Part shown: piece by piece, positions 2,253 through 24,975 of the stretch
How positions within the stretch are numbered: the stretch's first letter is position 1
Layout: every line of letters begins with the position of its first letter
Source: an uncultured Chitinophagaceae bacterium
GTDB taxonomy: Bacteria > Planctomycetota > Planctomycetia > Pirellulales > UBA1268
Length of the DNA stretch: 64,000 nt
Reading direction: 5' to 3'
Assembly (NCBI GenBank): GCA_964600785.1
Contig: CAZRKH010000005.1
Location: forward strand, 4,317-68,316
Translations under genes and position numbers: made by a program
Notes under the pieces: model-generated
Told to the model about the DNA's origin: nothing
Database searches by the model: none
The model's input: the letters and a program-made list of their open reading frames with translations, nothing else

Positions 2253-2273
2253 TCTCCGCGACGCCCTGCCGGC

Positions 2274-3371
2274 TCAACCGCTTGTTCGCCGCGGGCCATG
2301 TTCGCTGACGAACAGCTTGCCGATCATGTCGAGCGGCAGCACGACGTCGGCGAGCCCCGCCTCGATCACCGCCTTGGGCATGCCGTAGACCGCGCAGCTT
2401 GCCTGGTGCTGGGCGACCACCATGCCCCCGGCCTCCTTGACCAGACGGCATCCGGCGGCCCCGTCACGGCCCATCCCGGTCAGCACCGCGGCAGTGACAC
2501 CCGATCCGTAGGCCTCGGCGAGGCTCTCGAGGAGCCGGTCATACGAAGGCCGGCAGCCGTGCAGCGGCGGTTCATCAGCCAGCCGGCAGACATGTCTGCC
2601 ACCATTTGCCGCGACCCTCAAGTGGAATCCAGCCGGTGCCATGTAGACCGTGCCCGCGACGACCCGAAGGCCGTCGGTCGCCAGCCGCACCGGAAAGGTC
2701 GCCATCTCGTCGAGCCGCGCCGCCAGTGATTCGATGAACTTCAAAGGCATGTGCTGGACCACGAATACGGGCACCGACGGAGCCGAGGTAAGCTGGGACA
2801 GGATCACTCGCAACGCCGCCGGACCGCCCGTTGATGCCCCGATGGCGATGCAGCCACCGGAAGGCTTTCTGGCGGCGTCTGTGTTGCCGGCCGCGGTCGG
2901 GGTGGTGAGTCGCGGCGACTTTCGGCCCGCGGCTTTGCTTTCAATGATTTCCCCCAGGCGAACCGCCAGGGCCCTGCCGATCTCGTTGCGGGCGATGTGC
3001 GGCGGCATGCCGAGCGGCTTGAGAATGCAGTCAAACGCCCCGAGCAGGAGAGCGTCGACGGTGGCCGCCGCTTTCTCCTCGGCGGTACTGCTGACGACCA
3101 CGACCTGCGTCTCGAGCTTCCGCCGCTTGATCTCTCGCAGCACGCCGAAGCCGTCGAGATTTGGCATCACCAAATCGAGCGTCACCACATCGGGCTGGAG
3201 GTCGGCGATCATCGCAATCGCCTCGACCCCGTCAGCTGCCGTGCCGACAACCTCGGCTCCTGAGATGCCGGCCACGAGGTTGACAAGCATCTGCCGGTAG
3301 AGGGCCGAGTCGTCGACGACAAGCACCCCGAGAGGTTGTGCTGCAGAAGAATTGTGAAGGGGGTCAGCCAT
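2274..3371 (-). CDS. cheB: Chemotaxis response regulator protein-glutamate methylesterase
   Basis: Receiver domain (LGVLVVDDSALYRQ...DVVTLDLVMPNLDG) followed by a methylesterase domain (IAIGASTGGPAAL, VQHMP, GMGRDGA). The start is chosen at MADPLHN. The ORF extends to 3476. Confidence 0.9.
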   Translation of the reverse strand: MADPLHNSSAAQPLGVLVVDDSALYRQMLVNLVAGISGAEVVGTAADGVEAIAMIADLQPDVVTLDLVMPNLDGFGVLREIKRRKLETQVVVVSSTAEEKAAATVDALLLGAFDCILKPLGMPPHIARNEIGRALAVRLGEIIESKAAGRKSPRLTTPTAAGNTDAARKPSGGCIAIGASTGGPAALRVILSQLTSAPSVPVFVVQHMPLKFIESLAARLDEMATFPVRLATDGLRVVAGTVYMAPAGFHLRVAANGGRHVCRLADEPPLHGCRPSYDRLLESLAEAYGSGVTAAVLTGMGRDGAAGCRLVKEAGGMVVAQHQASCAVYGMPKAVIEAGLADVVLPLDMIGKLFVSEHGPRRTSG

Positions 3372-3555
3372 ACGACGCCGATCATCAGGTCGTTCAAATT
3401 CTACCATCGTGGCTGCACGACCCTCGAAATCCCACCAGCCCCATCCGGAGTTTCCGGCGGGGCGAAGTTTTCGCATCAGGCGGTTTGCTCGGGCAAAAAC
3501 GGCGGGCTATACCAACATCGGACGAATTTTTGACGAAACGGTCATCAAGATTTCC

Positions 3556-4080
3556 ATGAACGATGCATCCCCGACAACCAATGAGAACAACCTCGTTTCC
3601 GGGCGTAGCGGCGTGCCGCAGTTCGTGGGATTCCTCATCGCCGGTCAACACTACCTTTTTCGCATCGAGAAAATACAGGAAATCATCATGCCCGCGGCGG
3701 TCGCCGGCGTGCCGGAGGTGCCGTCGTATGTGGAGGGAGTCAGCAACCTCCGGGGCACGATCATCCCGATCATCAACCTGCGGTCCCTCTTCGGGCTCGA
3801 TCATCGCGAGGCGGATGTCGAAACCCGCACGATCGTGGTCAATGTCGGCTCGAGGACGCTCGGCTGCACCGTTGACGCGGTCTCCCGGGTGATGCGGATT
3901 CCGCCCGACCAGATTCAGCCGGCGGCGGAGGCGGCGGCGACAACGGCCAGGTTTGTCGAGGGATTTGCCCATGTCGACGAAGACCTGCTGATCCTGCTCG
4001 ACGTCGAGCAGCTTCTCGATCCCGCAAGGCTCGACGAAGTCCACCGTGCGAGCATCCGCATGCCACCCACGACCGCTTGA
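3556..4080 (+). CDS. cheW: Chemotaxis coupling protein CheW
   Basis: [24 protein letters not shown]...[26 protein letters not shown]...[11 protein letters not shown] is a typical CheW domain. ATG at 3556 (MNDASP). Confidence 0.9.
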
Positions 4081-10777: not shown

Positions 10778-12115
10778 ATGCATGTCATGACACTCACTCC
10801 GCCTGAGACCTCAGGCGACCCCCGCCCGCTGTTTGCCGACCTCGGCCTTTCACAGCCGCTGCTCGAGGCGGTCGAGGCCGAGGGCTACTCCACGCCCACG
10901 CCAATCCAGGCCAGGGCGATTCCCCACGTACTCGCCGGCCGGGATCTCTTTGGCTGCGGCCAGACCGGCACCGGCAAGACCGCGGCGTTTGCCCTGCCGC
11001 TGATCGAACGCATGCTCGCCTTACCACGGCCGCGGGCGGCCCGCGGCTGCCGCACCCTGGTGCTCGCCCCGACCCGCGAACTGGCAGGCCAGATCCATGC
11101 CAGTTTCCTGGCTTATGGTCGTCGGGCCCGTCTGACCGCAGCGGTGATTCATGGCGGGGTCAGCCAGCGGCCACAGGCCGCGGCGATGCGAAAGGGCGTT
11201 GACGTGCTCGTGGCCACTCCAGGACGGCTGCTCGACCTGGTGGGCCAGCGACTGGTCGACATCCGCGGCGTCGAGTTTCTCGTGCTCGACGAAGCTGACC
11301 GGATGCTCGACATGGGCTTCATCCACGACATGCGGCGAATCATAGAAATGCTGCCACGACGTCGACAGACGCTCTTCTTTTCCGCCACGCTGCCGACGGA
11401 GGTGCGAAGCCTGGCCTCGTCGATGCTTCGCGATCCGCTCGAGGTGATGGCCGCCCCGCGATCGACTCCGGCAGAATCGGTCGAGCAGTCGGTCCTCTTC
11501 GTCGCCAAGGAGCAGAAACGGGCGGCGTTGGTGCAGCTGCTCCGCGAGGAGGCCACCGGCCGGGTGATTGTCTTCACGCGAACCAAGCACGGGGCTGACA
11601 AGCTCCATCGCCTGCTCGACAAGGCGGGCCTCGTGGCCGCGGCGATCCACGGCAACAAGACCCAGGGGCAGCGGGAGCGGGCCCTCGCGGCATTCCGCTC
11701 GCCACGGCCGCCGGTACTGATCGCCACCGACATCGCTGCCCGCGGCATCGACGTGGAGCATGTCTCCCATGTGGTCAACTACGAGCTGCCCCACGAGCCG
11801 GAGACCTACGTGCACCGCATCGGGCGAACGGGCAGGGCGGGGCACTCGGGGGCGGCGGTGAGCTTTTGCGAGCCGGAGGAGTGGAACCGGCTGACGGCGA
11901 TCGAGCGGCTGCTGCGGCGGCCGATTCCCCGTCGCAACGAGCCACCCGCCGGGGTCGCCGAGCGGGCAGCTAGCGGCCAAGCTCGAGGCAGGCGAGGGTC
12001 GCATCGTCCCGCAGATAGAGCCTCCCGCCGGCGAGGGCGGGCAGCCCGCGGAGGGTCGCCTCCCGCGGGCGGCAGCGGGCGAGCACGCGGAGCCCGGCGG
12101 GGTCGGGCCGGATGA
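10778..12115 (+). CDS. DEAD-box ATP-dependent RNA helicase (RhlE-like) with Arg-rich C-terminal tail
   Basis: Q-motif TPTPIQ, Walker A GQTGTGKT, the DEAD box in VLDEADRMLDMGF, SAT, and HRIGRTGRAG. Confidence 0.92.
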   Translation: MHVMTLTPPETSGDPRPLFADLGLSQPLLEAVEAEGYSTPTPIQARAIPHVLAGRDLFGCGQTGTGKTAAFALPLIERMLALPRPRAARGCRTLVLAPTRELAGQIHASFLAYGRRARLTAAVIHGGVSQRPQAAAMRKGVDVLVATPGRLLDLVGQRLVDIRGVEFLVLDEADRMLDMGFIHDMRRIIEMLPRRRQTLFFSATLPTEVRSLASSMLRDPLEVMAAPRSTPAESVEQSVLFVAKEQKRAALVQLLREEATGRVIVFTRTKHGADKLHRLLDKAGLVAAAIHGNKTQGQRERALAAFRSPRPPVLIATDIAARGIDVEHVSHVVNYELPHEPETYVHRIGRTGRAGHSGAAVSFCEPEEWNRLTAIERLLRRPIPRRNEPPAGVAERAASGQARGRRGSHRPADRASRRRGRAARGGSPPAGGSGRARGARRGRAG

Positions 12116-13256
12116 GCAGCAGTTCGCCGTCGGTGGTGGCCGCGATCAGTTTGCCGTCGGCTGCGATCAGCGTGCCGTAGCCGAGGCCCGGCTCCCGCCA
12201 GCGAACCTCGCCGGTCGCCGGATCGAGGCAGACAAGGCTCGCCGGGGGCACGTCGTCGCGACCGTCAAAGCCGTAGAGCAGCCCGTCGACCAACAGCGGC
12301 GTGCAGTATTGGCTCGCCAGCGAATCGACACCCTTCCACAGCGGTGTGGCGTCATCGACATCGAAGGCCGCCGCCACCGAGCCGATGCCGTAGGCGGCGG
12401 TCACCAGCAATCGCGGCCGGTCTCCCGGCGGCAGCAGCACCGGCGTGGCCGCATTGACCGTCGGCCCCCGCATGCCAAAGGGAAACTCCCAGCGGACCCC
12501 GCCGTCGGCTGCGTCGAGCAGCAGACAGCGGTAGCGGGTCACCGCCAGCACATGCGGCCTGCCGCCGAGGCTGACCGCGATCGGTGCGGAATAGCCGGCC
12601 GGCTCCCGGGTCGCCGTCCAGCGGGTCGAGCCGTCGGCCAGGGCAACGGCCACGATCCCGGTCTCGCCCTTCGTGCCGCCGACGAACGTCACCACGCAAG
12701 CCGCCTCGCCCTCGCCCGTGACCAAGGGCGTGCTGCCGGCCCCGAAATAGCCCTCGCGGGCGTCAAACTCGCGGTGGGTCTGCCGCTGCCACAGCCGCCG
12801 ACCGGTGGCCAGCTCGTGGCAGGAGAGCATGCCCGTGGCTCCGTAGGTCACGACCCGTTCGCCGTGGACCACGGGTGTGCACAGCGGGCCGTCGCCGCCG
12901 CCGACCTGCGGGCGAAAACGGGTGGGGTGAGCATCCCGCCAGCGTGTCTGCCCGCTGGCCGCGTCGATCGCCTCGATGACCTCCTCGTCGCCGGACCCTC
13001 CACGGGACGCCTCGCGATGGAACACGACCACAGTCTCACCAACGACCACCGGGCCGGCGTAGCCGCGTCCGATCGGCCGTCGCCAGCGTGCCTTCGGACC
13101 CGTCTCCGGCCAGCTCTCGGCGATCCGCTCGTCGGCCGCGGCGTGCCCGTCGCGATGCGGCCCGAGCAGCTGCGGCCAGTCGCCCGCCCGGGCCACGGCG
13201 GCACCGAACGCGAGGATTCCGGCCGACAGCACCGCGAGGGACGTACGACGCACCAT
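11970..13256 (-). CDS. PQQ-like beta-propeller repeat protein (BamB/YxaL-like fold), secreted
   Basis: Start chosen at MVRRTSLAVLSAGILAFGAAVARA (signal peptide). The sequence has repeated W/G-rich blade segments (GDWPQLLGPHRDG, GQTRWR, GRRLWQ, GSTRW, GGVRWEF, GEVRWRE, GRLYLRDD). Confidence 0.8.
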   Translation of the reverse strand: MVRRTSLAVLSAGILAFGAAVARAGDWPQLLGPHRDGHAAADERIAESWPETGPKARWRRPIGRGYAGPVVVGETVVVFHREASRGGSGDEEVIEAIDAASGQTRWRDAHPTRFRPQVGGGDGPLCTPVVHGERVVTYGATGMLSCHELATGRRLWQRQTHREFDAREGYFGAGSTPLVTGEGEAACVVTFVGGTKGETGIVAVALADGSTRWTATREPAGYSAPIAVSLGGRPHVLAVTRYRCLLLDAADGGVRWEFPFGMRGPTVNAATPVLLPPGDRPRLLVTAAYGIGSVAAAFDVDDATPLWKGVDSLASQYCTPLLVDGLLYGFDGRDDVPPASLVCLDPATGEVRWREPGLGYGTLIAADGKLIAATTDGELLLIRPDPAGLRVLARCRPREATLRGLPALAGGRLYLRDDATLACLELGR

Positions 13257-13498
13257 CAGAAGCCTCACTCGCCGATGACGTTGATGCGGACCGGCACGCA
13301 ACACCCGCTGGATACCCGGCCATGGACGGGGGCAGGCAGTCTCGGCGGCCTGCATCGATCCCTGCGTGAGTTTTTGATGAAAAGCCGGCTCGCCGCAACC
13401 CGGCGGCCTGTCGCGGGGCAATACTTCGCCTCGGGCCGGTTGCTGCCGTGGGCCGATTCATTCAGCCACGCCCGCGATTTCTCCTGGAAACACAAGCC

Positions 13499-16033
13499 AT
13501 GCCAGTTCAGTCGAAGGCCGATCTGCTCGAATGCTACGAGGTCGGCTCGCTCCGCTTTCCCGACCGCGACTACTACGACCGCCATCTCGTGCTCAACCAT
13601 GTCGTGCTGCCCGACGCGGCCAGCCAGCGAGAGCGGTTTGAGGCGGTGGCCCGCACGCTGCGTGACCTGCTCGCCCAGCGATGGATGCTGACGCAGGCCG
13701 AGTATGACCGCAGAAATCCCAAGCAGGTCTACTACCTCTCGATGGAGTTTCTCATCGGGCGGATGCTCGAGAACAACATCGCGGCCCTCGGGGTGGAGCG
13801 ATTCGTCCGGGAAGATCTGCGGTCTGACCCGCTGCAAGACTGGTCGGGCATCGTGGAGAGTGAGCCAGACGCGGGCCTGGGCAACGGTGGCCTCGGGCGG
13901 CTCGCCGCCTGCTTCATCGACTCGATGGCGACCCTCGGGCTGCCGGCCACCGCCTACGGCCTGCGGTACGACTTCGGCATCTTTCGGCAGCGTATCGAGG
14001 ACGGCCGCCAGATCGAACAGCCTGACAATTGGCTGGCCTGTCCCGATCCCTGGGAGGTGGTCAGGCCCAGCCGAGGTGTGGCTGTCGGCTTCGCCTGCGG
14101 GTTCGCACTGCACGGCGGCCAGATCGATCTGGTCCGCAACCATTCCTTCCAGTTCAAGGGTGTGCCGTATGACCGGCCGGTCGTCGGCCATGGAGGCCGC
14201 ACGATCAACACGCTGCGGCTGTGGCGAGCGGCCACGGCCGACGTCTTCGATTTCGGCCAGTTTTCGGGAGGTGATTTCTTCGGGGCGGTCTCCGACAAGG
14301 TGCTCGCCGAGACGGTGACCCGCGTGCTCTACCCCGATGATTCCACCCCCCGCGGCCGCTCGCTGCGATTCATCCAGGAGTTTTTCCTCGTCCGCTGCTC
14401 GCTGGCCGACATCATTCGCCGCTTCCGTCACCGCGGCAACGACTGGAGCGAACTGCCGGCGAAGGTCGCGATCCAGCTCAACGACACCCATCCCTCGATG
14501 GCGGTGGCCGAACTGATGCGGATCCTGCTCGACGAGGCGGGCCTGGGCTGGGACGAGGCCTGGGAGCTTTGTGTCGGCACCCTCGCCTACACCAACCACA
14601 CGCTCCTGCCGGAGGCGCTGGAGAAGTGGCCGGTCGAGCTGTTTGAGCGGCTCCTGCCGCGGCACCTGGAGCTGATCTACGAGATCAATCGTCGCTTCCT
14701 CGACGACGTCCGCCGGGAGCACCCCGGCGACGAACAACGTGTGGCCCGCATGAGCCTGATCGAGGAGGGGCCGCACCGCCGCGTACGGATGGCCCACCTG
14801 GCGGTGGTCGGCAGCCACAGCACCAACGGCGTGGCCGCGATCCACAGCAGGCTCCTGCAGGAGACGACGTTGCGGGACTTCGCCGAGATGTATCCCGAAC
14901 GCTTCAACAACAAGACCAACGGCATCACCCCCCGCCGCTGGCTGCTGGTGGCCAACCCGCCGCTGGCGGACCTGATCACCGAAGCGATCGGCGACGGCTG
15001 GATTACCGACCTCACGCAGCTCGAACGGCTCGCGCCGCTTGCCGAAGACGCTCCCTTTCGTGCTCGCTTCCTGGAGGCGAAGCGGCAGGCGAAGCTGCGG
15101 CTGGTCGACTGGCTGGCGGCCACCCGTGGGATCAAGCTCGACCCCGAGACCCTCATCGACTGCCAGATCAAGCGGATCCACGAATACAAGCGGCAGCTGC
15201 TCGCCGCGATCGGGATCGTGGCCACCTACGACCGCCTGCGGAGCGACCCGCAGCTGGAAATCCCGCCGCAGACCTACCTCTTCGCGGGCAAGGCGGCCCC
15301 CGCCTACCATCTCGCCAAGGTGATCATCCGGCTGATCACCGCCATCGGCCGGGTGGTGAATCGGGATCCGCTCATCCGTGGGCGGCTGCGGGTCGAGTTT
15401 TTGCCCGATTACTCGGTGACCCTCGCGGAGCGAATGATTCCCGCGGCGGACGTGTCGGAGCAGATCTCGACCGCCGGCTACGAGGCCAGCGGAACGAGCA
15501 ACATGAAATTCATGCTCAACGGGGCGATCACCGTGGGCACCCGCGACGGGGCGACCGTCGAGATGGCCGAGGCGGTCGGCGAGGAGAACATCATGCTCTT
15601 CGGGCTTTCCGCGGAGGAAGTCGCGGCAAGCCGGGGCTGGTACAGCCCCCACTGGCACTACCACCACGAACCGGAGACGAAAGCCGCCCTCGACCTGATC
15701 TTCAACAACCACTTCAGCCACGACGAGCCGGGCTGCTTCGAGCCGATTCGCGAGGCGATCATGCACCACGGCGACCCCTACATGCACCTCGCCGATTTCA
15801 GCAGTTATCTCGAGGCCAAACAGCGGATCTGGGCGCTCTATGCCGATCCGCACCGGTGGGCGGCCGTCGCGATCCGCAACGTGGCCGCGGCCGGGCGATT
15901 CTCGAGCGACCGCACGATCGCGGAATATGCCCGCGACATCTGGCGGGTTGAGCCTTGTCCGGTGCAAACGACCTGCGAGCTGCCCGTTGCCCACCCCGGG
16001 GAGCCGACGGCCACCGTTTCACCGAGCTGGTGA
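13499..16033 (+). CDS. glgP: Glycogen/maltodextrin phosphorylase
   Basis: YYLSMEFLIGR, EPDAGLGNGGLGRLAACF, NDTHP, the EISTAGYEASGTSNMKFMLNGA region with the PLP lysine, and RTIAEYARDIW. Confidence 0.95.
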   Translation: MPVQSKADLLECYEVGSLRFPDRDYYDRHLVLNHVVLPDAASQRERFEAVARTLRDLLAQRWMLTQAEYDRRNPKQVYYLSMEFLIGRMLENNIAALGVERFVREDLRSDPLQDWSGIVESEPDAGLGNGGLGRLAACFIDSMATLGLPATAYGLRYDFGIFRQRIEDGRQIEQPDNWLACPDPWEVVRPSRGVAVGFACGFALHGGQIDLVRNHSFQFKGVPYDRPVVGHGGRTINTLRLWRAATADVFDFGQFSGGDFFGAVSDKVLAETVTRVLYPDDSTPRGRSLRFIQEFFLVRCSLADIIRRFRHRGNDWSELPAKVAIQLNDTHPSMAVAELMRILLDEAGLGWDEAWELCVGTLAYTNHTLLPEALEKWPVELFERLLPRHLELIYEINRRFLDDVRREHPGDEQRVARMSLIEEGPHRRVRMAHLAVVGSHSTNGVAAIHSRLLQETTLRDFAEMYPERFNNKTNGITPRRWLLVANPPLADLITEAIGDGWITDLTQLERLAPLAEDAPFRARFLEAKRQAKLRLVDWLAATRGIKLDPETLIDCQIKRIHEYKRQLLAAIGIVATYDRLRSDPQLEIPPQTYLFAGKAAPAYHLAKVIIRLITAIGRVVNRDPLIRGRLRVEFLPDYSVTLAERMIPAADVSEQISTAGYEASGTSNMKFMLNGAITVGTRDGATVEMAEAVGEENIMLFGLSAEEVAASRGWYSPHWHYHHEPETKAALDLIFNNHFSHDEPGCFEPIREAIMHHGDPYMHLADFSSYLEAKQRIWALYADPHRWAAVAIRNVAAAGRFSSDRTIAEYARDIWRVEPCPVQTTCELPVAHPGEPTATVSPSW

Positions 16034-16704
16034 TTGCGGTAGCGTTGACAGAAGCCGCGGCGGGTCGCGGCCGAAGGCTGCTGGAATCCGCCGTGAGCGA
16101 GACACCCCCCGACCTGGCCATCCTCCGCGAACTGCTTCCCGGCCCGATCGAGCCGCTCTGGCGGCGGCTGGCGATGGAACTTGCCACGGCGGCAGCCTCC
16201 GGGCGGCATCCGCTGCACCTGGTCGTTGTCGCGTCGCTCGATGCCCGCGGCGGGGCTGCTGCCCGCACCGTGGTCTTGCGGGGCTTCGACGAGGCGGCCC
16301 GGCTGGCAAGCTTCCACACCGACCGTCGCAGCCCCAAGCTGGCGGGGCTGGCCCGCGATCCGCGGCTCACGCTTCTGTGGTACGACGAGCCATCGCGGCT
16401 GCAGATCCGCATCCCCGCCGAGGCCACGATCCATCACGCCGACCGGGTCGCTCGGGATGCCTGGGAGGCGGCCGCGGCGATGAGCCGGGCTTGTTACGCC
16501 TCGCAGCATGCCCCGGGCGAGGAACTGACCCGGCCAACTCCGGCACCATCACCACACGATCCCGAAAACGGCTTCGACAACTTCGCAGTTGTCTGCTGTC
16601 GCTTCAGGGCCGTGGAACTGCTCGCGCTCGATGCCGCCGGCCACCGACGGCGGAGGATCGATCTTGCGGGTCAGACGCCGCAGGGAGCCTGGCTGGCCCC
16701 GTGA
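16030..16704 (+). CDS. Pyridoxamine 5'-phosphate oxidase-like (PdxH-like split-barrel FMN-binding) protein
   Basis: RTVVLRGFDEAARLASFHTDRRSPKLAGLARDPRLTLLWYDEPSRLQIRIPAEATI parallels the PdxH core ([24 protein letters not shown]...LLFYW...RQVRIEG), recalled from memory. The start is uncertain. GTG 16030 would overlap the glgP stop (GTGA). Confidence 0.6.
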   Translation: MIAVALTEAAAGRGRRLLESAVSETPPDLAILRELLPGPIEPLWRRLAMELATAAASGRHPLHLVVVASLDARGGAAARTVVLRGFDEAARLASFHTDRRSPKLAGLARDPRLTLLWYDEPSRLQIRIPAEATIHHADRVARDAWEAAAAMSRACYASQHAPGEELTRPTPAPSPHDPENGFDNFAVVCCRFRAVELLALDAAGHRRRRIDLAGQTPQGAWLAP

Positions 16705-16734: not shown

Positions 16735-16929
16735 TCATTCTTCGCGGCGGCGACGGCGGGCATCGCGACGGCGGCGGGCCTCGCGCCTGGCCACCCGTTT
16801 GATCTCGTCTTCCATGACACGATTGATCGCCTCGTCGACATCACGGCGGGTGGCGATTCCCATGTCGATGAGCATCTGCATCCAGCCCTGTTCGTAATCG
16901 TGAAGCCGCGACTTGAGTCGTTCGCCCAT
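16735..16929 (-). CDS. Small hypothetical protein (64 aa) with helical N-terminal part and Arg-rich tail
   Basis: The ATG at 16929 is preceded by AGGAGG about 8 nt upstream on the coding strand. The N-terminal 45 aa have non-degenerate composition (MGERLKSRLHDYEQGWMQMLIDMGIATRRDVDEAINRVMEDEIKRV). Confidence 0.5.
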   Translation of the reverse strand: MGERLKSRLHDYEQGWMQMLIDMGIATRRDVDEAINRVMEDEIKRVARREARRRRDARRRRREE

Positions 16930-17044
16930 TCGGGGGTCCCTCCTGCCCGCCGGTAATTCTCTGCGGAACGCCGGATTCTAGAAGGAGCCCCGGCAAGGAC
17001 ACGCCGGCGGCTGGGGGGGCGGTTTTTCCCGTTTTTTCCGCCCC

Positions 17045-17881
17045 TCAGTCCGCCTTTCGCCAGCAGGACACTTCCGCGAAGGTGTGCTGATGCTTGCGGG
17101 CGGTCTCACGGATCACGAAGGGCAGATCGCAGCGGGCTTCGAGGTCGAAGCGATCGCCGAGGGACAGACCGATCCCTTCGAGCGTGCGTCTCGGGCGGCC
17201 ATCGACGACTCGCCCGCCAAGCCATCGATCCGGAGGCGTGTAGTCGGCAAGCCAGGTGTAGGGCGAGGTGATTACCAGCAGACCGCCCGGCTGCAGCCGC
17301 CCGCCAAGCCCCTCCAGAAAGGCGGCCGGGTCGTAGAGCCGGTCGATGAGGTTCCCGGCGAAGACGACATCATATCCGCTCAGCGAGGGATCGAGCCGAC
17401 AGGCGTCGCCCTCGGCAAAATGCACTCGCTGCCGGACCTCGGCGAGCCCGAGCGACGCGAGGTCAATCCTCCTCGGCTCGGTGAGGCTGCCCTCGATGAC
17501 CACCTCGTAGTCCACCACCGGCTCAGACTGCACGCGACGGCAGGCGTCGATGAAGCTCGCCGAAAAGTCGATCGCATCGACCCGCCCCACGAGTCTCGCC
17601 AGTTCAAAACTGGCCCGGCCGACGGCGCAGCCCACGTCGAGCCCCCGGTCGGTACCTCGCAGCCGTCCGGCAACCTCGGCGATTGCCGCAGCCGGGAAGT
17701 TGGCGACGCCCAGGGCAGTGGGGCCGTAGTGAAACTCGAGATACTCGGCGACCGCCCGCTCGGTTTCATAGAGCCGCGATCCTGGCGTGACCGCCACGCC
17801 GGCGGGCTGCGGGGGCGTGCTTGCGTTGTGCATCTTGCCGCTCATGTTGCCGCTCATGTTGCCACTCATGTTGCCACTCAT
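17045..17881 (-). CDS. Class I SAM-dependent methyltransferase resembling the C-terminal (putative 4-mercaptohistidine N1-methyltransferase) domain of OvoA, stand-alone
   Basis: LYETERAVAEYLEFHYGP...GLDVGCAVGRASFELA (SAM motif I)...YDVVFAGNLIDRLYDP...GGLLVITSPYTWL. The family assignment is from memory of the OvoA C-terminal domain pattern. The start is taken at the first ATG of the MSGN repeat, 9 nt after the upstream stop. The 396-aa ORF extension overlaps the upstream gene. Confidence 0.75.
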   Translation of the reverse strand: MSGNMSGNMSGNMSGKMHNASTPPQPAGVAVTPGSRLYETERAVAEYLEFHYGPTALGVANFPAAAIAEVAGRLRGTDRGLDVGCAVGRASFELARLVGRVDAIDFSASFIDACRRVQSEPVVDYEVVIEGSLTEPRRIDLASLGLAEVRQRVHFAEGDACRLDPSLSGYDVVFAGNLIDRLYDPAAFLEGLGGRLQPGGLLVITSPYTWLADYTPPDRWLGGRVVDGRPRRTLEGIGLSLGDRFDLEARCDLPFVIRETARKHQHTFAEVSCWRKAD

Positions 17882-17890
17882 GTTGCCGCT
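17831..17890 (-). repeat. Five tandem copies of a 12-bp unit (plus-strand CATGTTGCC[G/A]CT, first copy CATCTTGCCGCT) encoding (MSGN)4-MSGK
   Basis: Read directly from the sequence: units at 17831, 17843, 17855, 17867 and 17879. Each carries an in-frame ATG on the minus strand. Confidence 0.95.
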
Positions 17891-18939
17891 CAGGGCGTTC
17901 GCCCCGTTGCCTGTCGGCCAGCCCCGCCGGCGAGTCTGTCGGTTGCCAGCAGTTGCTCGAGGCGATCGGTCGCCGCGAGGCCTTCGAGCAGGCCCGGCGG
18001 GATCCCCGCGGCGGCGGCCAGCAGCGATCCGACCACCGCCCCACGGTGGCAGCTGTCGCCGCCGACCATGGCGTTGCTCATGACACCCGCGGTGAAATCG
18101 GAGGCGTGCCGCCAGGCGAGAAAGAGAGCGGCCGGGAACGCGTCGGGGATGTAGCAGGCCGGGCTGAGCACCCGTCCGACGACGACCGCGTCGGGATAGC
18201 GGTCCCAGTCGCTCGTCTTCGCCGCCGAGATCCATTCGTGGCCCTCGTCGAGCATCGCCGAGCGGAGCGGCTCGCCCGCCTCGACCCGCACCAGGAGCCG
18301 CACGAGCACATCGGCGGCCCGCAGCACGCCGGAATCGCGGTGGGTCAGCCCCACGTGTTCCTGCACGATCCGCCGCAGCTCCGGCAGACTCGGCTCAAAG
18401 GGCCGCATCGCGTCGAGGATCGCCGGCACCGGCACCAGCCCGCCGATGTGCACATCAACGCCCCCACAGGCCCGCGGCTTGCGGCCGGCGGCAAGGCTCG
18501 CAAAGAACGTGCGGTGGTATTCCTCGACATAGGTGTCGCGGTGGCGGCCCGGGGTGAGCATGAAATCGATGTATCGCTCGAGCCAGCGGTCGGCGTCGTA
18601 GCCGCCTTCCTCGCGGATGCAGGCGGCGAGTTCGAGGGCCAAACGGGCGTTGAGGGTGTTCTCACCGGCCTGGAGAAACTGGTGATAGTGGATACCCCGC
18701 TGGCCCCAGTAGCGAGCCTGCTCTCGAAGGATGTCGCCCCGCGGCCCGGCCGGCTCGTAGCGGCTCCGCCAGAGGATGCTGTCGGGGTGGGGGGATTTCG
18801 GCGGCAGGTAGCCGGATATCTCGCCGTAGTCCCGCCGCAGGGCCTCGCGGTCGTAATACCAGTGCACCGGCATCGCGATCGCGTCGGCCACCAGCGAGCC
18901 GGCGAGAGGCGAGCGGGAGAGATCGGGATCGTTCATCAC
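17890..18939 (-). CDS. ADP-ribosylglycohydrolase-family protein (divergent active-site motifs)
   Basis: 349 aa. The N-terminal LAGSLVADAIAMPVHWYYD and C-terminal NAMVGGDSCHRGAVVGSLLAAAAG correspond to the two conserved ARH-fold motifs but carry substitutions. ATGA overlap with the upstream ATPase gene. Confidence 0.8.
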   Translation of the reverse strand: MMNDPDLSRSPLAGSLVADAIAMPVHWYYDREALRRDYGEISGYLPPKSPHPDSILWRSRYEPAGPRGDILREQARYWGQRGIHYHQFLQAGENTLNARLALELAACIREEGGYDADRWLERYIDFMLTPGRHRDTYVEEYHRTFFASLAAGRKPRACGGVDVHIGGLVPVPAILDAMRPFEPSLPELRRIVQEHVGLTHRDSGVLRAADVLVRLLVRVEAGEPLRSAMLDEGHEWISAAKTSDWDRYPDAVVVGRVLSPACYIPDAFPAALFLAWRHASDFTAGVMSNAMVGGDSCHRGAVVGSLLAAAAGIPPGLLEGLAATDRLEQLLATDRLAGGAGRQATGRTP

Positions 18940-19685
18940 AGCACCTTTGCGAGGAAGCCGGTCAGGCGAGGCGTCGCCGGCCGATCAAAAAATTCAGTGG
19001 ACGGCCCGTGGGCCTCGATCAGCCCGTCGGCCACAAAGGCCAGTTCGTCCGCCACACGCCGGGCGAAGCCCATTTCGTGGGTGGCCAGCACGATCTGGCC
19101 GCCGAGTGCACCGACCTCGCCGATCATGTCAAGCACCTCCGAAGTCATTTCCGGATCGAGCGCCGAGGTCGGCTCGTCCAGAAACAGGATAGACGGCTCG
19201 ACCACGAGGGCACGCAGGATCGCGATCCGCTGCTGCTGCCCGCCCGAAAGCGAGGCCGGACGCTTGCGGGCATGCTCGGCGAGGCCGAACCGGGCCAGAG
19301 GCTCGCGGATCCTCGCCTCGGCCGCCTCGCGGGTCATGCCGTGCACGTGCACCAAAGGCAGAATCAGGTTGTCGAGTGCGGAGAGGTGCGGGAAGAGGTT
19401 GTAGGCCTGGAAAACCGTGCCCACCTGCCGCCGCCAGGCGAGCAGCCCCGCCTCATCCCGCGGCAGGGGCCGGCCGTCGAAGGAGACCCTCCCGGCTGCG
19501 GGCACATCGATCCCTGCAAGAATCCGCAGGAGGGTCGACTTGCCCCCACCCGAGGGGCCGATCAGCACCAGCGTACGGATTTCGCCGGTGGCGAGCGTGC
19601 AGCCGCGGAGCACCTCCGCCGCGGTGCCATCGGCGGCGGTGAACCGCTGCCGCACATCCTCGAGCACGAGCTTCACGCGGCACAC
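18936..19685 (-). CDS. Polar amino acid ABC transporter ATP-binding protein
   Basis: Walker A GPSGGGKST, Q-loop, signature LSGGQQQRIAILRAL, Walker B ILFLDEPTSALD and H-loop. The C-terminal FFDRPATPRLTGFLAKVL is typical of the GlnQ/HisP type. Confidence 0.95.
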   Translation of the reverse strand: MCRVKLVLEDVRQRFTAADGTAAEVLRGCTLATGEIRTLVLIGPSGGGKSTLLRILAGIDVPAAGRVSFDGRPLPRDEAGLLAWRRQVGTVFQAYNLFPHLSALDNLILPLVHVHGMTREAAEARIREPLARFGLAEHARKRPASLSGGQQQRIAILRALVVEPSILFLDEPTSALDPEMTSEVLDMIGEVGALGGQIVLATHEMGFARRVADELAFVADGLIEAHGPSTEFFDRPATPRLTGFLAKVL

Positions 19686-19712
19686 TCCGTCGGTCTCGGC
19701 GAGCCGCTGTGG

Positions 19713-20465
19713 TCAGCCCTCATGGCGGAGCCTCCGTTCGAGCCCGCGGGCGGCCCAGGAGAGCGGGAGCGTGAGCAGGAGATAGCCCGCCGCCAGCGGC
19801 AGGTAGCTCTCCAGGGCCGAGTAGGTGAAGGCATTCACCTCTTGTGCGGCCAGGGTGAACTCCGAGATTGCGATCACCGAAAGCAGTGAGGAATCCTTGA
19901 TCAACGAGGCGAGCTGTCCGGCCACCGGCGGGAGCACGATTCTCGCTGCCTGCGGCAGGATCACAAGACGAAACGCCTGCCACCTCGTGAGGCCGATCGC
20001 CCGGGCAGCGTCCCGCTGCGGTTGCGGGATCGCCTTCAGGCCACCCCGGAAGATCTCGGCCATGTAGGCTCCCGAAAAAAGCGAGAGGATCAGAATCCCG
20101 ACCACGAAGCGATTCTCCAGCCCGACGGCCGAGGCCACCACGTAGAAACCGATCAACAGCTGCACCAACAGCGGGGTGCCGCGGAACAGCTCGACGTAGA
20201 CCCGTGCCACCGCTTCGAGAATGAGCGACTTCGACCCGAGGCAGATCGCCGTGACGAGCCCAACCAGGCCGCTGATCACCAAGGCCGCGAGGCTGATCGC
20301 GACAGTGGCCAGCCAGCCGGTGACAAACCGGCGTCGGTAGGCCCAGACCTCGTCCCACTTCCAGTCGTAGTCGATCCGCCAGAAGGCCAGCGCGATCAAG
20401 CCCGCAGCCACCGCGATCACGGCAAGGTGGGCGGCCGTGCGGGAATTGGAGAGTCGACGGATCAC
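19713..20465 (-). CDS. Polar amino acid ABC transporter permease (HisM/GlnP type)
   Basis: 250 aa with multiple hydrophobic segments. FRGTPLLVQLL and the EAA-like loop AARAIGLTRWQAFRLVILPQA. Confidence 0.9.
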   Translation of the reverse strand: MIRRLSNSRTAAHLAVIAVAAGLIALAFWRIDYDWKWDEVWAYRRRFVTGWLATVAISLAALVISGLVGLVTAICLGSKSLILEAVARVYVELFRGTPLLVQLLIGFYVVASAVGLENRFVVGILILSLFSGAYMAEIFRGGLKAIPQPQRDAARAIGLTRWQAFRLVILPQAARIVLPPVAGQLASLIKDSSLLSVIAISEFTLAAQEVNAFTYSALESYLPLAAGYLLLTLPLSWAARGLERRLRHEG

Positions 20466-20523
20466 AAACGTTACTTATCGGGCTTGTCGCTGGATGCGGC
20501 GGATTCGCACCCCGCCAACCACC

Positions 20524-21333
20524 TCAGAATACGAAGGGAATCCCCTCCGCGGCGAAGAAGGCCTTCTCCTGGGGAAGATACCGGTCGCCGAGCCGCTCAA
20601 AACCACCCGATTCCCGAAAGGATTCGAGAAAGCGGTTGACCTCGCGTCGTAGCTTGTCGTCGCCCAGGCGGATACCGACCGCCCAGGATTCCTCGCGGAA
20701 GGGAGTCAGCAGGGCCCGCGTGGTGTCGGGATGGCGGCGGTGGCTGCGGTAGACGGAGAAGGGATCGTAGAGAAAGGCATCGGCCTTGGCCTGCGCGACC
20801 TCCATCACCGCCGCGGTTTCCCGGTCGAGCACGAGCAGCCGGGCCTCGTGGAGGGCCTCACGGGCAAAAAGGTGGCCGGTGGTTCCCTTCTTCACCGCCA
20901 CCGTTCTGCCCGGCCGGTCGAGGTCACCGGCCGACTCGATGTTGGAATCGGCCGCCGCAAGAATCGCGAGGCCGGTCCGCAGATAGGGCTCGGAAAAGGC
21001 GATCGACCCGGCACGCTCGGGTGTGGCCGTCATCGACGAGATGACCAGGTCGATGCGGCCGGTCTTGAGAGCAGGAATCAGCCCGTCGAAGGCGATGTTC
21101 TCGATGACCACGTCCCGCCGGAGAAACTCACCGAGGGCCCGGGCCAGGTCAGGGCTGACGCCGGTCGGCTCGCCGCGGGCATCGGTCATTTCGAAGGGCG
21201 GGTAGGAGAGTTCCATCCCTACCCGCAACGGCCGGCCGGATGATTTGTCGAAGCGACCGCTGCGGACGCCGCATCCGCCCGCCGGCAACACCGTGAGCAG
21301 ACCGAGCAAGAGGAGTAGGTGGCGACGTGGCAT
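20524..21333 (-). CDS. Family-3 (polar amino acid) solute-binding lipoprotein
   Basis: The start at MPRRHLLLLLGLLTVLPAGGCG gives a lipobox. LRVGMELSYPPFEM, DVVIENIAFDGLIPALKTGRIDLVISSMT and ADAFLYD are typical SBP_bac_3 features. Confidence 0.85.
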   Translation of the reverse strand: MPRRHLLLLLGLLTVLPAGGCGVRSGRFDKSSGRPLRVGMELSYPPFEMTDARGEPTGVSPDLARALGEFLRRDVVIENIAFDGLIPALKTGRIDLVISSMTATPERAGSIAFSEPYLRTGLAILAAADSNIESAGDLDRPGRTVAVKKGTTGHLFAREALHEARLLVLDRETAAVMEVAQAKADAFLYDPFSVYRSHRRHPDTTRALLTPFREESWAVGIRLGDDKLRREVNRFLESFRESGGFERLGDRYLPQEKAFFAAEGIPFVF

Positions 21334-21426
21334 CGGCGGTAGCAGCGGGAGAGGCACGGGAGAGGCACCCGGTGCGAGTGTAGCTCTCGGCCGCTTGCTA
21401 TCAAGCAACGCGTTGTCCAGGAAACC

Positions 21427-22074
21427 CTACTCGAGTCCGTGGCGGATGGCCCACACGGCCGCCTGGGTGCGGTCGCTGACGGCGAGTTTGCGGAGCAGAT
21501 TTTGGACATGCTCCTTGACGGTCTCCACGCTGATCGCCAGGGCCAGGGCGATCTCCTTGTTGGAAAGACCCAGGGAGATCTGCCGCAGCACCTGCGACTC
21601 TCGCGGGGTAAGCGGAATGTCGAGATCATCCACGGTCGCCTGGTTGGCCATCGTTCCAGCCACCTTCCGCACCGGCCCTGACTGCAGCGGGGCATGCCCG
21701 TCGACGGCGCCCTTGACCGCGTCGCGGATCATCTTGGCGTCAGATCCCTTGACGAGATAGTCGAAGGCTCCGGCCGCCAAGGCCCGGGCCAGATAGGTCG
21801 GGTTGTCGAAAGCCGAAAACATGATCACCCTTGTCTTGGGTGAGGCCGCACGGATTCGGGAGAGCACCTCGAAACCGTCGAGGCTGCCCGCCTCCTCGCT
21901 TCTCAGCCGCACATCGAGGAGGACCACGCCCGGCTTGAGCTTCCTCGCCATCCTGACCGCATCGGTGCCGTTGTCCGCCTCGCCGGCGACACGCATTCCC
22001 GCCTGCTCGAGAATTACAACGAGTCCACGACGGACGACCTCCTGGTCATCGACCACCATCACATTCTCAGCCAC
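21427..22074 (-). CDS. NarL/FixJ (LuxR-type HTH) two-component response regulator, no cognate kinase nearby
   Basis: Receiver domain (VMVVDDQEVVRRGL...VVLLDVRL...) plus a C-terminal LuxR HTH (LTPRESQVLRQISLGLSNKEIALALAISVETVKEHVQNLLRKL). The start is approximate. Confidence 0.9.
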   Translation of the reverse strand: MAENVMVVDDQEVVRRGLVVILEQAGMRVAGEADNGTDAVRMARKLKPGVVLLDVRLRSEEAGSLDGFEVLSRIRAASPKTRVIMFSAFDNPTYLARALAAGAFDYLVKGSDAKMIRDAVKGAVDGHAPLQSGPVRKVAGTMANQATVDDLDIPLTPRESQVLRQISLGLSNKEIALALAISVETVKEHVQNLLRKLAVSDRTQAAVWAIRHGLE

Positions 22075-22258
22075 CGGCCCGGCCCTCCCAATCACACCTC
22101 CGAATCCTGACACCAGAACGGCATCAGCGGGGCGACGTTTCGGCGAACCGGCCAAGAATGCCCATGGCCTCGCCCCCTATCTCCGGGGAGAATAGCCCCC
22201 GCCGGGCACCCTCGGCAAGCATTCCGAGGCACACCGCAAAATCGGGCCTCCGCCACCG

Positions 22259-22828
22259 CTAGCGAGGCACGACGTAGATTCCCTCCGCGGTGATCTGCAC
22301 GATCGGGAACGGGAGGTCGGGGTCATAGCGGCCGCGGCCGCGAATCACGACCTTTTGACCGGCATCGATGCCAAAAATCGCCCGGGCATCGCTGGGAATC
22401 ACCGCACCGGCATCATCGACGAACTGCACCGCCGCCACGGTCGCCTTCTCCTTTCGCCGCTTGCAAAACGGGCAGCTGTCGGCGTCGTGGCCCTCGGCCT
22501 TCGCATGGCCGTCGTCCGCGAGGTCGATCAGCATGAACGAGGCCTTACCCTCGAGAAACGGGCTGTCCTTGGGATCCTTGGCGGCGATCGTGCCGGCAAC
22601 GGTGATCAATGCCTCGTGGTCGGTGGCTTTTTTGAGGATGCCGAGGGCATCGCCAAGGGTAAGTGCCGCCGGCGGCTTCTCGGAAAGGACGAACCGTTCC
22701 CGGACCTCGGCGGCCGGGATTGCCTCCGCGGCCGAATCACTCGGCCAGCCTGCCACCGCAAGGACCACCGCAACGCATCCGATCTTCAAGCCCGTCTCGG
22801 CCGGCAAGAATCGTCCACCGCTGTTCAT
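22259..22828 (-). CDS. Hypothetical exported protein
   Basis: 189 aa with an N-terminal hydrophobic segment (IGCVAVVLAVAGW) and a CPFC motif. ATGA overlap with the upstream His-rich lipoprotein gene. I recognise no domain. Confidence 0.6.
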   Translation of the reverse strand: MNSGGRFLPAETGLKIGCVAVVLAVAGWPSDSAAEAIPAAEVRERFVLSEKPPAALTLGDALGILKKATDHEALITVAGTIAAKDPKDSPFLEGKASFMLIDLADDGHAKAEGHDADSCPFCKRRKEKATVAAVQFVDDAGAVIPSDARAIFGIDAGQKVVIRGRGRYDPDLPFPIVQITAEGIYVVPR

Positions 22829-23424
22829 TCCTCGTCTCCCTTTGTCTTGGGCTTGCCGGCGGCATGCTTTTCGATGGCTGCGATGCCTTTCTCAACTCGC
22901 TCCGATATATCATCGTAGACCGCCTTCCCGCCATCGTGGATCGTTTCATCGAGCTCGTTGAAGGCCTCAAAAAGCTTGTCCGTCGCATCCTTGACCGCTT
23001 CGGAAGCCTCTTCGCCGAGCGACGCGGCAAGCCCCTCGATGTCTTCAAGCAGATGGCCGACCGCATGGACATGCCCGTCAGCGGCCTCGACGTTCTCCTC
23101 ACCAAGCGAGGATTTCAGCTTGCCAACCAGCGACTTCAGCTCGGCAAGACCCTCCGCCAGCGTTTCGGGATGCACGTGCTCGGCGTCGTGGTCATGGTCG
23201 TGGTCATCGCCATGGTCGTCGTGGCTGTGGTCGGTCTCGGCCGGCTTTTTCTCGGTCGTCGCCCCTCCCCCGCCGGCTGGAGGCGGACTGCAGCCGCCGA
23301 TCGCCACCGTCACCGCAGGCAGCAGCATCCCCACGAGGACCGGCCCCAGCATGCTTCCCGCCGCGGCCCGCGGCTTTGCGATTTGCATCTTGTGTCGCAT
23401 CTTTTGTCGCATCACCCGTCTCAT
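22825..23424 (-). CDS. Histidine-rich lipoprotein (putative periplasmic metal-binding protein)
   Basis: The start at MRRVMRQKM gives a signal peptide ending in the lipobox VAIGGC. This is followed by TDHSHDDHGDDHDHDHDAEHVHPE and an acidic helical C-terminal part. Confidence 0.65.
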   Translation of the reverse strand: MRRVMRQKMRHKMQIAKPRAAAGSMLGPVLVGMLLPAVTVAIGGCSPPPAGGGGATTEKKPAETDHSHDDHGDDHDHDHDAEHVHPETLAEGLAELKSLVGKLKSSLGEENVEAADGHVHAVGHLLEDIEGLAASLGEEASEAVKDATDKLFEAFNELDETIHDGGKAVYDDISERVEKGIAAIEKHAAGKPKTKGDEE

Positions 23425-24975
23425 ATCTTGGCTCCCGTGTGGGGTCTCTGTTTCGCGGGGTACAAACCCTAGCGCGAACTGAAGAATACCGGTGTAGGTT
23501 GCCGGCTGACAAATCCGGTTTTCACAGCCCGAGGAATGAACCATGGCAGACACCGCCGGCAGCATCGATCCGATCGCCCAGAAGGCCCTCGCGATCAACC
23601 TCGACGAACGGCTTTACGGCACCTTTGCCGAGATTGGTGCCGGCCAGGAGGTGGCCCGCTGGTTTTTCAGCGTGGGGGGCGCCGCGGGAACCGTGGCCAA
23701 GACGATGTCGGCCTACGACATGACCTTCAGCGACGAGATCTACGGCCATGCCTCGCGGTACGTTTCGCTCGAGCGGCTGACCGAAATGCTCGATCACGAG
23801 TACGGCCTGCTCGGCGAACGGCTTTCACAGTCACGTGGCGGCCGCAGCTGCTTCTTCACCTTCGCCAACACCGCCGCAGCCCTTTCGCATCGTGGCGGCA
23901 ACGAATGCCATGCCTGGATGGGGATTCGCTTCCAGACCGAACCCGGGGCCGAGCCGAGCGACCTTTTGATTCACGCCCGAATGCACGACCGCAGCAACCC
24001 TTCGCAGCAGGAGGCGATCGGCAGGCTGGGGGTGAACCTCTGCACGGCGGCCTTCTACCACTGGAAGCAGCCGCGGGCGATGCTCGAGATGCTGCTGGAC
24101 GACATCGAGCCGGGTCGCCTGGAGATCGACTGGGTGCAGCTCGCCGGGCCGGCCTTCTCCACCCCCGGTCCGATCGACAACCGCCTGATGGCTCTGCACC
24201 TGGTGCGGCTCGGCTTCACCCCGGCTGTGCTCTTCGGTGACACCGGTGAGCCACTCCTGGCCGCCGACGTGCTGCGTCGCAAGGCGGTGCTCGTGGAACG
24301 CGGCCGCTTCGCGCCGGTCACGCGACTCAATCTCGGCATGCTCGCAGAGTCACGAACGCTCTTCGAGGCCGAACTTGCCGCCCCACCAAACCCCGGCGAC
24401 CCGGTGGCCTCCGCCTCCACCTGCCCGGCGGTGCTGGAGGTCATGGAAATCACGATGAACAACCTCCGCGACCGCGGCATGGTCGACGACGCCGACTTTC
24501 TCTCCCGCGTCGACCTCCTCACCGCCGCGGGAAAGATGGTGCTCGTTTCCGATCTCGGACCCTTCCACCGGCTCGCGGAATACCTCGCCGAGCGGAAGGT
24601 GGCCCGCGCGGGGATCGTGCTCGGCGTGCCGCTGCTGCGGGAGCTGTTCGTCGAAAACCACTACCGCGACCTGCCCGGCGGCATCCTGGAAGCCTTCGGG
24701 CGGCTCTTCACCCATTCGGTGCGGCTGTTCGTGCATGCCACCCGCGATCCCCTCGACGGCCGGCCTGTCACCGCTGAGTCGCTGAAAGTCGCGGGCCACC
24801 TCTGCCACCTCCACAGGCATCTTCTCGAGAATCGGTTCATCATCCCGATTCCTTTCGACGAAGCCTCGCTGCGGACCTACTCGAGCGACGAGGTGCGGAG
24901 CCGGATCGCCGCGGGCGACCCCAGCTGGAAGGCGTTCGTGGAGCCGGCCGTGGCGGAGCTGATCGAATCGCGGGG

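Follow-up and report, generated by a model that had tools for sequence, protein, structure and literature searches.

Few thiols found in nature are stronger antioxidants than the ovothiols, and comparison of planctomycete genomes shows that the gene for the ovothiol synthase OvoA usually resides in these bacteria at the end of a block encoding an amino-acid ABC importer and a protein of the ADP-ribosylglycohydrolase (ARH) fold. We analyzed this block in 64 kb of DNA from an uncultured bacterium assigned by GTDB to the Pirellulales of the Planctomycetota (contig CAZRKH010000005.1 of assembly GCA_964600785.1, positions 4,317 to 68,316; hereafter the window), where seven co-directional open reading frames (ORFs) at positions 16735-22155 lie on the minus strand, all of them present as an earlier note on this sequence had listed them. 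Read along that strand, they encode a response regulator, the solute-binding protein (SBP), permease and ATPase of the importer, the ARH-fold protein, a methyltransferase and a 64-aa protein. [quoted passage not shown] Throughout the phylum, the locus ties OvoA or OvoM genetically to an amino-acid ABC importer and to an ARH family whose metal site has changed from acidic ligands to His, Cys and Asp. Our preferred reading, held tentatively and at somewhat less than an even chance, is that the methyltransferase-only variant imports a thiohistidine-type amino acid and matures it to ovothiol A.

An alignment of the ARH-fold protein was scanned against one genome per GTDB species and returned at least 595 loci, the best 80 of which we analyzed, counting adjacency only where enough flanking sequence exists. 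The ARH gene occurs in three contexts: 32 planctomycete loci with an OvoA synthase domain, 18 planctomycete loci with the methyltransferase only, and 22 loci in Verrucomicrobiota. In the 32 Planctomycetota loci of the first kind, genes for the SBP, permease, ATPase and ARH-fold protein are followed by the OvoA sulfoxide-synthase domain, which on long enough contigs is nearly always part of a full-length OvoA fusion, as in L012, where a 744-aa OvoA behind the ARH gene scores 622 bits against TIGR04344 and 303 bits against TIGR04345. The 18 methyltransferase-only loci (the window and 17 others) carry the same four genes with the methyltransferase directly after them, and a TARA Oceans contig holds the same methyltransferase-only block. 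All 22 Verrucomicrobiota loci encode the ARH-fold protein without transporter and without OvoA, and clustering of flanking ORFs together with Pfam scans of ten neighbors revealed no conserved partner in that context. Synteny of transporter, ARH and methyltransferase genes, as the single sequence had suggested, is upheld in the planctomycete relatives: the ATPase gene adjoins the ARH gene upstream in 52 of 53 loci, OvoA or the methyltransferase adjoins it downstream in 50 of 50, the permease gene is kept in 45 of 46 relatives, and the SBP gene lies on the same strand in 31 of the 35 with sufficient upstream sequence. Its recurrence in dozens of independent genomes puts the arrangement far beyond what chance would produce. 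The earlier description of the final gene as a stand-alone methyltransferase is correct for the window but does not extend to most relatives, which carry full-length OvoA there; since full-length OvoA ends the block in most relatives, the block is the planctomycete ovothiol locus and the window holds its methyltransferase-only variant.

The methyltransferase gene (17045..17881, minus strand) encodes a protein that matches the NCBIfam model TIGR04345 (ovoA_Cterm, putative 4-mercaptohistidine N1-methyltransferase) with 253.6 bits against a cut-off of 170 and covers positions 1-242 of its 242. Generic class I methyltransferase models in Pfam reach 44 bits at best, so the OvoA C-terminal type proposed in the earlier note is confirmed over a generic family assignment. 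Comparison with structures in the Protein Data Bank gives the 5-selenohistidine N-methyltransferase OvsM as the best match (9bxh, 250.8 bits, E=1.7e-73), followed by residues 464-706 of OvoA (8khq, 221.9 bits, E=1.1e-64) and the stand-alone 5-thiohistidine N-methyltransferase OvoM (9bxl, 212.8 bits, E=6.3e-62), with the next match, MitM, at an E-value of about 1e-3. Identity is 58-60% to the C-terminal domains of planctomycete full-length OvoA proteins and 51% to OvsM, the glycine motif LDVGCAVGRAS typical of class I S-adenosylmethionine (SAM) binding is visible in the sequence, and many homologs of about 256-265 aa are already named "putative 4-mercaptohistidine N1-methyltransferase" in NCBI and JGI records. 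The protein is a predicted SAM-dependent thiohistidine N-pi-methyltransferase of the OvoM/OvoA C-terminal type, whose characterized relatives methylate N-pi of 5-thio- or 5-selenohistidine. OvoM (9bxl) and OvsM (9bxh) belong to the same family and likewise stand alone, with a length of about 260-280 aa, and because both have already been solved, a synthase-free methyltransferase of this kind is not new; their partners differ, however, in that the window methyltransferase stands beside an ABC importer and an ARH-fold protein. OvsM clusters with ovsA, senB (selenosugar synthase) and senC (selenophosphate synthetase), and ovs genes are reported mainly from gamma-proteobacteria (PMC11030361). A link of the window locus to selenium and ovoselenol was considered and rejected, as the methyltransferase lies nearer to planctomycete OvoA C-terminal domains than to OvsM, and is therefore not specifically an ovoselenol enzyme, and as no OvsA-like gene was found in the window; the sole AIRS-domain protein nearby is PurM (390 bits) and not a SelD/SenC selenophosphate synthetase.

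Most relatives hold the full-length fusion at the same position, and this would fit a methyltransferase that is a decaying, functionless remnant of a truncated OvoA. We find that explanation barely credible, given the full-length TIGR04345 match well over cut-off, methyltransferase-only genes that are intact in 18 loci and mutually 48-64% identical, and a reading frame that is also intact in the near-identical contigs L081-L083. The spacers between ARH and methyltransferase genes in methyltransferase-only loci are shorter than 100 nt (8 nt in the window), and therefore contain no remnant of the OvoA N-terminal domain. Neighbor-joining trees of the ARH-fold protein and of the methyltransferase domain are broadly congruent; in them the full-OvoA loci group as one clade, whereas the methyltransferase-only loci fall into several deep lineages, four or more in number. 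Occurrence of the methyltransferase-only form in several deep lineages makes it a stable architecture and not a decayed OvoA.

Two single loci differ in gene content within the block. At L018:5427-6761 the ARH gene is followed by a 444-aa OvoA N-terminal domain that ends in a stop codon, and the 480 nt left beyond it contain no methyltransferase domain. L018 is thus a candidate third, synthase-only variant or possibly an artefact of assembly or frameshift. L035 carries a sulfatase-like gene with a CTPTR motif (2117-3754, minus strand) between the ATPase and ARH genes, and is the only planctomycete locus with that junction broken.

The earlier note had found no sulfoxide-synthase domain in the window, and tblastn searches with a planctomycete OvoA N-terminal domain agree, returning no homolog in the 64 kb at E<=1. 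The same domain is absent within 10 kb either side of the 17 other methyltransferase-only loci. No DinB/FGE-sulfatase sulfoxide-synthase domain is fused to the window methyltransferase either, which begins 8 nt past the ARH stop codon, and with no synthase domain at the locus or in the window, the locus cannot form the C-S bond. The window further contains no match to the OvoA/EgtB/SenA family or to OvsA-like proteins, SenB and SenC not having been searched by a dedicated model. A pyridoxal phosphate (PLP)-dependent lyase of the OvoB type was not found among about 36 window ORFs scanned with Pfam or NCBIfam, which are part of the window's ORFs, nor did any PLP lyase come up among the conserved neighbors of OvoA-bearing loci. 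The 120 closest homologs of the planctomycete OvoA N-terminal domain are all fusions of about 740 aa except for one 419-aa fragment on a short contig; nothing in this set, which is uninformative on more divergent copies, points to a stand-alone synthase being common in the clade.

These searches bear on a split de novo pathway as an alternative to salvage, one in which the synthase, as an OvoA N-domain-only gene, and a beta-lyase would be encoded at unlinked sites, the importer would feed cystine/cysteine or histidine, the methyltransferase would be an ordinary OvoM and the ARH-fold protein an accessory. Such a pathway is the main rival, though we place it on the improbable side. Stand-alone OvoM exists as a solved protein, L018 carries an N-domain-only OvoA beside the ARH gene, OvoA homologs without the methyltransferase module have been reported (PMC12631010), and OvoB is described as a broad-specificity lyase (PMC12631010), with no PLP lyase seen beside OvoA-bearing loci among their conserved neighbors. 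Models for cystine (TcyJ, TcyN) and for histidine importers also give the transporter good scores, yet all of these stay under cut-off. Weighing against a split pathway are the missing synthase in 64 kb here and within 10 kb of the other methyltransferase-only loci and the fused state of all but one of the 120 closest N-domain homologs. An importer feeding the C-S step should moreover travel with the synthase, and instead it stays with the ARH and methyltransferase genes. Because importer and ARH-fold protein remain with the methyltransferase where the synthase is absent, they most plausibly serve the methyltransferase step or its product and not the C-S-forming step. If the synthase is encoded elsewhere, the finding becomes a split ovothiol pathway with two accessory genes.

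Adjacency could also exist without a shared pathway, the importer and ARH-fold protein acting on another amino-acid derivative and OvoA or the methyltransferase being an old neighbor or a member of the same stress regulon. A downstream iron-containing alcohol dehydrogenase gene is common to full-OvoA and methyltransferase-only loci, which therefore occupy the same chromosomal neighborhood, and in showing that the whole neighborhood is syntenic across these genomes it speaks for this explanation, as do the ARH genes of Verrucomicrobiota, which have neither OvoA nor transporter beside them, and a 41%-identical relative in another context. We nevertheless judge it unlikely. OvoA or the methyltransferase follows the ARH gene on the same strand within 0-100 nt in 50 of 50 loci, at ARH identities down to about 57%, while the genes flanking the importer-ARH-OvoA/methyltransferase block vary between loci, and start and stop codons overlap within the block in several lineages (L081, L084, L042).

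The ARH-fold protein (17890..18939, minus strand) matches Pfam PF03747 with 131.8 bits against a gathering threshold of 26.2. NCBIfam has no dedicated model for it, and the sole match there, to DraG, reaches 19 bits where the cut-off is 337. An AlphaFold2 model built with 25 homologs reaches a pLDDT of 87.6 and a pTM of 0.91, and Foldseek comparison of this model returns MJ1187, DraG, ARH3 and ART-ARH immunity proteins at 12-22% identity with a probability of 1.00 and TM-scores up to 0.77 normalized by target. The window protein thus has the all-helical fold common to the PF03747 family (DraG, ARH1/ARH3, MJ1187 and Tri1-type immunity proteins), and differs from that family in a His in place of Glu, GGD-S/N-C-H in place of GGD-x-D-T, and extra invariant His, Cys and Trp residues. 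HMMER alignment pairs GDALGMPTE of MJ1187 with ADA(I/V)AMPVH in the ARH family (ADAIAMPVHWYYD in the window), and GGDADT of a Thermus ARH protein with GGD(S/N)CH, so that H26 stands in place of Glu and D295-x-C297-H298 in place of Asp-x-Asp-Thr. Residues H26, D295, C297 and H298 are invariant across the 25 homologs, which are 61-73% identical. The GGD motif keeps its first Asp and the N-terminal (A/G)DA motif likewise keeps its Asp, and the middle TDDT motif, we infer, corresponds to G-E93-N94-T95. The replaced positions are presumably the catalytic Glu and two Mg/Mn ligands of ARH3 and DraG. The substituted metal-site motifs that the earlier note had read in this protein, ADAIAMPVHWYYD and GGDSCH, are thus both present and their substitution is substantiated by alignment, invariance, structural model and fold comparison.

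Across the phylum the family is 60-76% identical and contains many further invariant His, Cys, Trp and Asp residues, with invariant stretches HWYYD, PHPDSILWRS, HYH and DTYVEEYHR. By sequence it is a conserved family of the Planctomycetes-Verrucomicrobia-Chlamydiae (PVC) clade with a non-canonical metal site, and strong constraint combined with an altered yet invariant site predicts an active protein with non-canonical chemistry. That the protein is instead a canonical, DraG-like ADP-ribosyl hydrolase reversing ADP-ribosylation of the transporter or of OvoA and the methyltransferase would fit its match to the Pfam ADP_ribosyl_GH family and the presence of DraG and ARH3 among the nearest solved folds. 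We consider this very unlikely, as His, Cys and His stand invariantly where MJ1187 has its Glu and the Thermus protein its second Asp and its Thr, the DraG model score lies far below its cut-off, and no ADP-ribosyltransferase gene was seen among the conserved neighbors.

Beyond these loci, a search of 1.84 billion cluster representatives recovered 140 members of the wider ARH family at E<=1e-30 and 629 at E<=1e-10. H26, H84 and H86 persist in more distant members, usually together with GENT, but the Cys-His pair is lost; longer proteins among distant relatives consist of ARH domains or unannotated extensions, with no domain fusions found. The context of the more distant relatives L087 and L088 is unrelated to OvoA. 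At L087:7264-10615 a 41%-identical ARH gene lies between a short-chain dehydrogenase/reductase (SDR) gene and a photolyase-related DPRP gene with overlapping junctions on both sides, indicating that the wider ARH family serves other, unrelated operons. A 780-aa protein of Creolimax fragrantissima (P0241, eukprot) has two tandem "HWYY" ARH domains and scores 365.7 bits to the window protein, and as this organism is eukaryotic, the "HWYY" ARH family is not limited to bacteria.

The importer genes lie upstream of the ARH gene on the minus strand. The SBP (20524..21408) matches SBP_bac_3 with 115.6 bits and carries at its N-terminus a signal sequence that includes AGGC, a lipobox-like motif; its best NCBIfam matches (Lys/Arg/Orn, cystine and Gln) all fall under cut-off, and its nearest entry in the Protein Data Bank is the reconstructed ancestral binding protein AncCDT-1 (132.9 bits). 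SSMTATPER, GTTG and the Asp of FLYDP in the SBP align with MSGMTITPER, GTTS and VTDSP of AncCDT-1, positions at which LAO/HisJ-type binding proteins grip their ligand by its alpha-carboxylate and alpha-ammonium groups. The permease (19713..20465), of the HEQRo / GlnP-EhuC type, scores 89 bits against BPD_transp_1 and 73 bits against TIGR01726 (cut-off 42), and the ATPase (18936..19685) scores 112 bits against ABC_tran, with its best specific matches GlnQ, TcyN and ArtP under their cut-offs. Equivalog scores of the importer lie far below threshold (GlnQ 201 versus 379, TcyJ 96 versus 312, HisJ 60 versus 459), and no component reaches a substrate-specific equivalog for Gln, cystine, His, Arg or ectoine. 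An SBP, a HEQRo-type permease and an ABC ATPase encoded together identify a polar-amino-acid (PAAT-family) importer. It has the same three-component architecture and domain families as the PAAT systems GlnHPQ, TcyJLN, HisJQMP and ArtPIQMJ, and differs from them in an ATPase gene that overlaps an ARH gene, an arrangement conserved across the phylum; we know of no characterized PAAT system with such an arrangement.

Under our preferred reading of import and maturation to ovothiol A, the importer would bring in 5-thiohistidine itself or a precursor of it in conjugated or oxidized form, in either case an alpha-amino acid of the thiohistidine pathway, as the SBP motifs shared with AncCDT-1 would suit. 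The cytoplasmic ARH-fold protein, with a His/Asp/Cys/His site instead of an acidic Mg/Mn site, would unmask or otherwise process the import, acting as a metallo-hydrolase or a lyase, and the methyltransferase would use SAM to convert 5-thiohistidine to ovothiol A. Relatives with full-length OvoA would add to this module de novo synthesis from His and Cys, and in the window's lineage only, the response regulator may control the operon. In its general form, uptake and tailoring or salvage of a histidine-derived amino acid, the role already proposed in the earlier note is plausible. A bolder version, which we hold doubtful, would make the ARH-fold protein a new thiohistidine metalloenzyme (a hydrolase or PLP-independent lyase that frees 5-thiohistidine, either out of a conjugate taken up by the cell or out of the sulfoxide that OvoA makes) and the coupled family-3 ABC system the first bacterial importer of ovothiol-type thiohistidines, giving synthase-free salvage in methyltransferase-only lineages.

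Several observations count against import and maturation of a thiohistidine. The importer is of a generic PAAT type, with its best scores on Lys/Arg/Orn, cystine, Gln and ectoine models and all of these under cut-off. The ARH family occurs in Verrucomicrobiota without transporter, OvoA or conserved neighbor, and this, together with the 41%-identical relative in another context, shows that the ARH-fold protein is not strictly tied to ovothiol genes. An unlinked sulfoxide synthase is possible elsewhere in the genome, of which 64 kb are visible. Free 5-thiohistidine or its conjugates are not documented as environmental nutrients in the searchable literature.

OvoA, OvoM, OvsM and the ARH fold are already known, and it is the conserved coupling of OvoA/OvoM to a family-3 ABC importer and a remodeled ARH family that appears undescribed. 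That bacteria can take up a thiohistidine-derived antioxidant through an ABC importer has a conceptual precedent in EgtUV, which imports ergothioneine, although EgtUV is of the betaine/choline (OpuC-like) type without a family-3 SBP and is not known to be linked to ARH or methyltransferase genes. In the searchable literature, we found no mention of an ADP-ribosylglycohydrolase together with ovothiol, OvoA, thiohistidine, ergothioneine or selenoneine, and no link between an ABC importer and ovothiol. Planctomycetes go unmentioned in a survey of ovothiol genes in bacteria from 2021, which leaves transporter co-evolution to future work (PMC8433421), and a 2025 paper on 5-thiohistidines states that little is known of proteins that sense, transform or depend on these compounds (PMC12631010). 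Full-OvoA and methyltransferase-only lineages form a natural experiment: if organisms with the methyltransferase-only locus contain ovothiol, the thiohistidine core must come from outside. Such a result would mean that microbes of aquatic communities salvage and cross-feed these antioxidants, and would give the ARH fold a new chemistry.

Transporter, ARH and methyltransferase genes in the window form a tightly packed unit. Measured between longest ORFs, spacers are 18 nt from response regulator to SBP, 58 nt from SBP to permease and 27 nt from permease to ATPase; the ATPase and ARH genes overlap, and 8 nt separate the ARH and methyltransferase genes and 115 nt the methyltransferase gene and the 64-aa ORF. 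The earlier note had called all spacers tiny or negative, which describes the ATPase-ARH-methyltransferase core but not the remaining junctions of 18-115 nt. It had also placed the tetranucleotide ATGA at the ATPase/ARH junction, where the actual sequence is GTGATG, allowing an ARH start at GTG with a 4-nt overlap with the TGA stop or at ATG with a 1-nt overlap. The ARH stop codon TGA occupies 17892-17890 and the first ATG of the methyltransferase is at 17881. A 12-nt tandem repeat (17831..17892, no strand assigned; TRF score 103) covers both the ARH stop and the methyltransferase start with 5.2 copies of the unit ATGAGYGGCAAC (coding strand); ATGAGYGGCAAC encodes (MSGN)n, and every unit supplies an ATG in the methyltransferase frame and a TGA in the ARH frame. 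Two near-identical contigs, L081 and L083, have 36 nt fewer at this repeat with about 2 copies left, and their ARH stop and methyltransferase start overlap as ATGA. The 36-nt difference shows that repeat copy number differs between strains. Searches of the locus for RNA elements, promoters and terminators found no Rfam family, and consensus scans gave no significant result.

Genes at the two ends of the co-directional run are not conserved with the block. The NarL/LuxR-type response regulator (21427..22059, minus strand; receiver and GerE helix-turn-helix domains) scores 90 bits against Response_reg and 69 bits against GerE in Pfam and reaches no NCBIfam equivalog cut-off, and a homolog lies upstream of the SBP gene only in L004 and the near-identical contigs L081-L083. 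The Arg-rich 64-aa ORF (16735..16929, minus strand) has no Pfam or NCBIfam match and no tblastn match in L001-L080, and the near-identical contigs L081-L083 are the only ones with a gene call for it. Their inclusion in the operon by the earlier note does not hold beyond these close strains and, for the response regulator, L004, and the 64-aa ORF is probably outside the module.

In the closest relatives (L001, L003, L004) a PQQ_2 beta-propeller gene directly follows the methyltransferase gene, and in the window this gene lies 3.6 kb away. The PQQ_2 gene and the genes that intervene occupy 11970-13421 (minus strand), 13448-16033 (plus strand) and 15955-16704 (plus strand), with an opposite-strand glycogen phosphorylase, a PPOX-type flavoprotein and the 64-aa ORF between the PQQ_2 gene and the methyltransferase gene; displacement by the glycogen phosphorylase insertion marks a local rearrangement or insertion. 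Downstream of OvoA, some loci but not all encode a 524-535-aa low-complexity membrane protein without a Pfam match. On the other side of the block, a Rhodanese-YgaP_TM-Rhodanese gene lies directly upstream of the SBP gene on the same strand in a marine Pirellulales methyltransferase-only sub-lineage only (L042:5800-6741 and L042:3801-5489; also L041, L050, L053, L062, L063, L077 and L084), with an Nramp-like transporter gene past it on the opposite strand, and neither gene is in the window. Upstream of the response regulator, the window carries two small co-directional ORFs of no family at 22259-22828 and 22825-23598 (both minus strand) that are called as genes in L081-L083; the 257-aa ORF upstream of the response regulator contains a His/Asp-rich stretch, HSHDDHGDDHDHDHDAEHVH, suggesting a metal-binding envelope protein. 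Farther along, an 812-aa DsbD-like protein (28432-30870, minus strand) scores 134 bits against a cut-off of 805 on the TsoB model for a rhodanese/DsbD-fusion selenoprotein, and is probably a generic thiol-disulfide membrane reductase.

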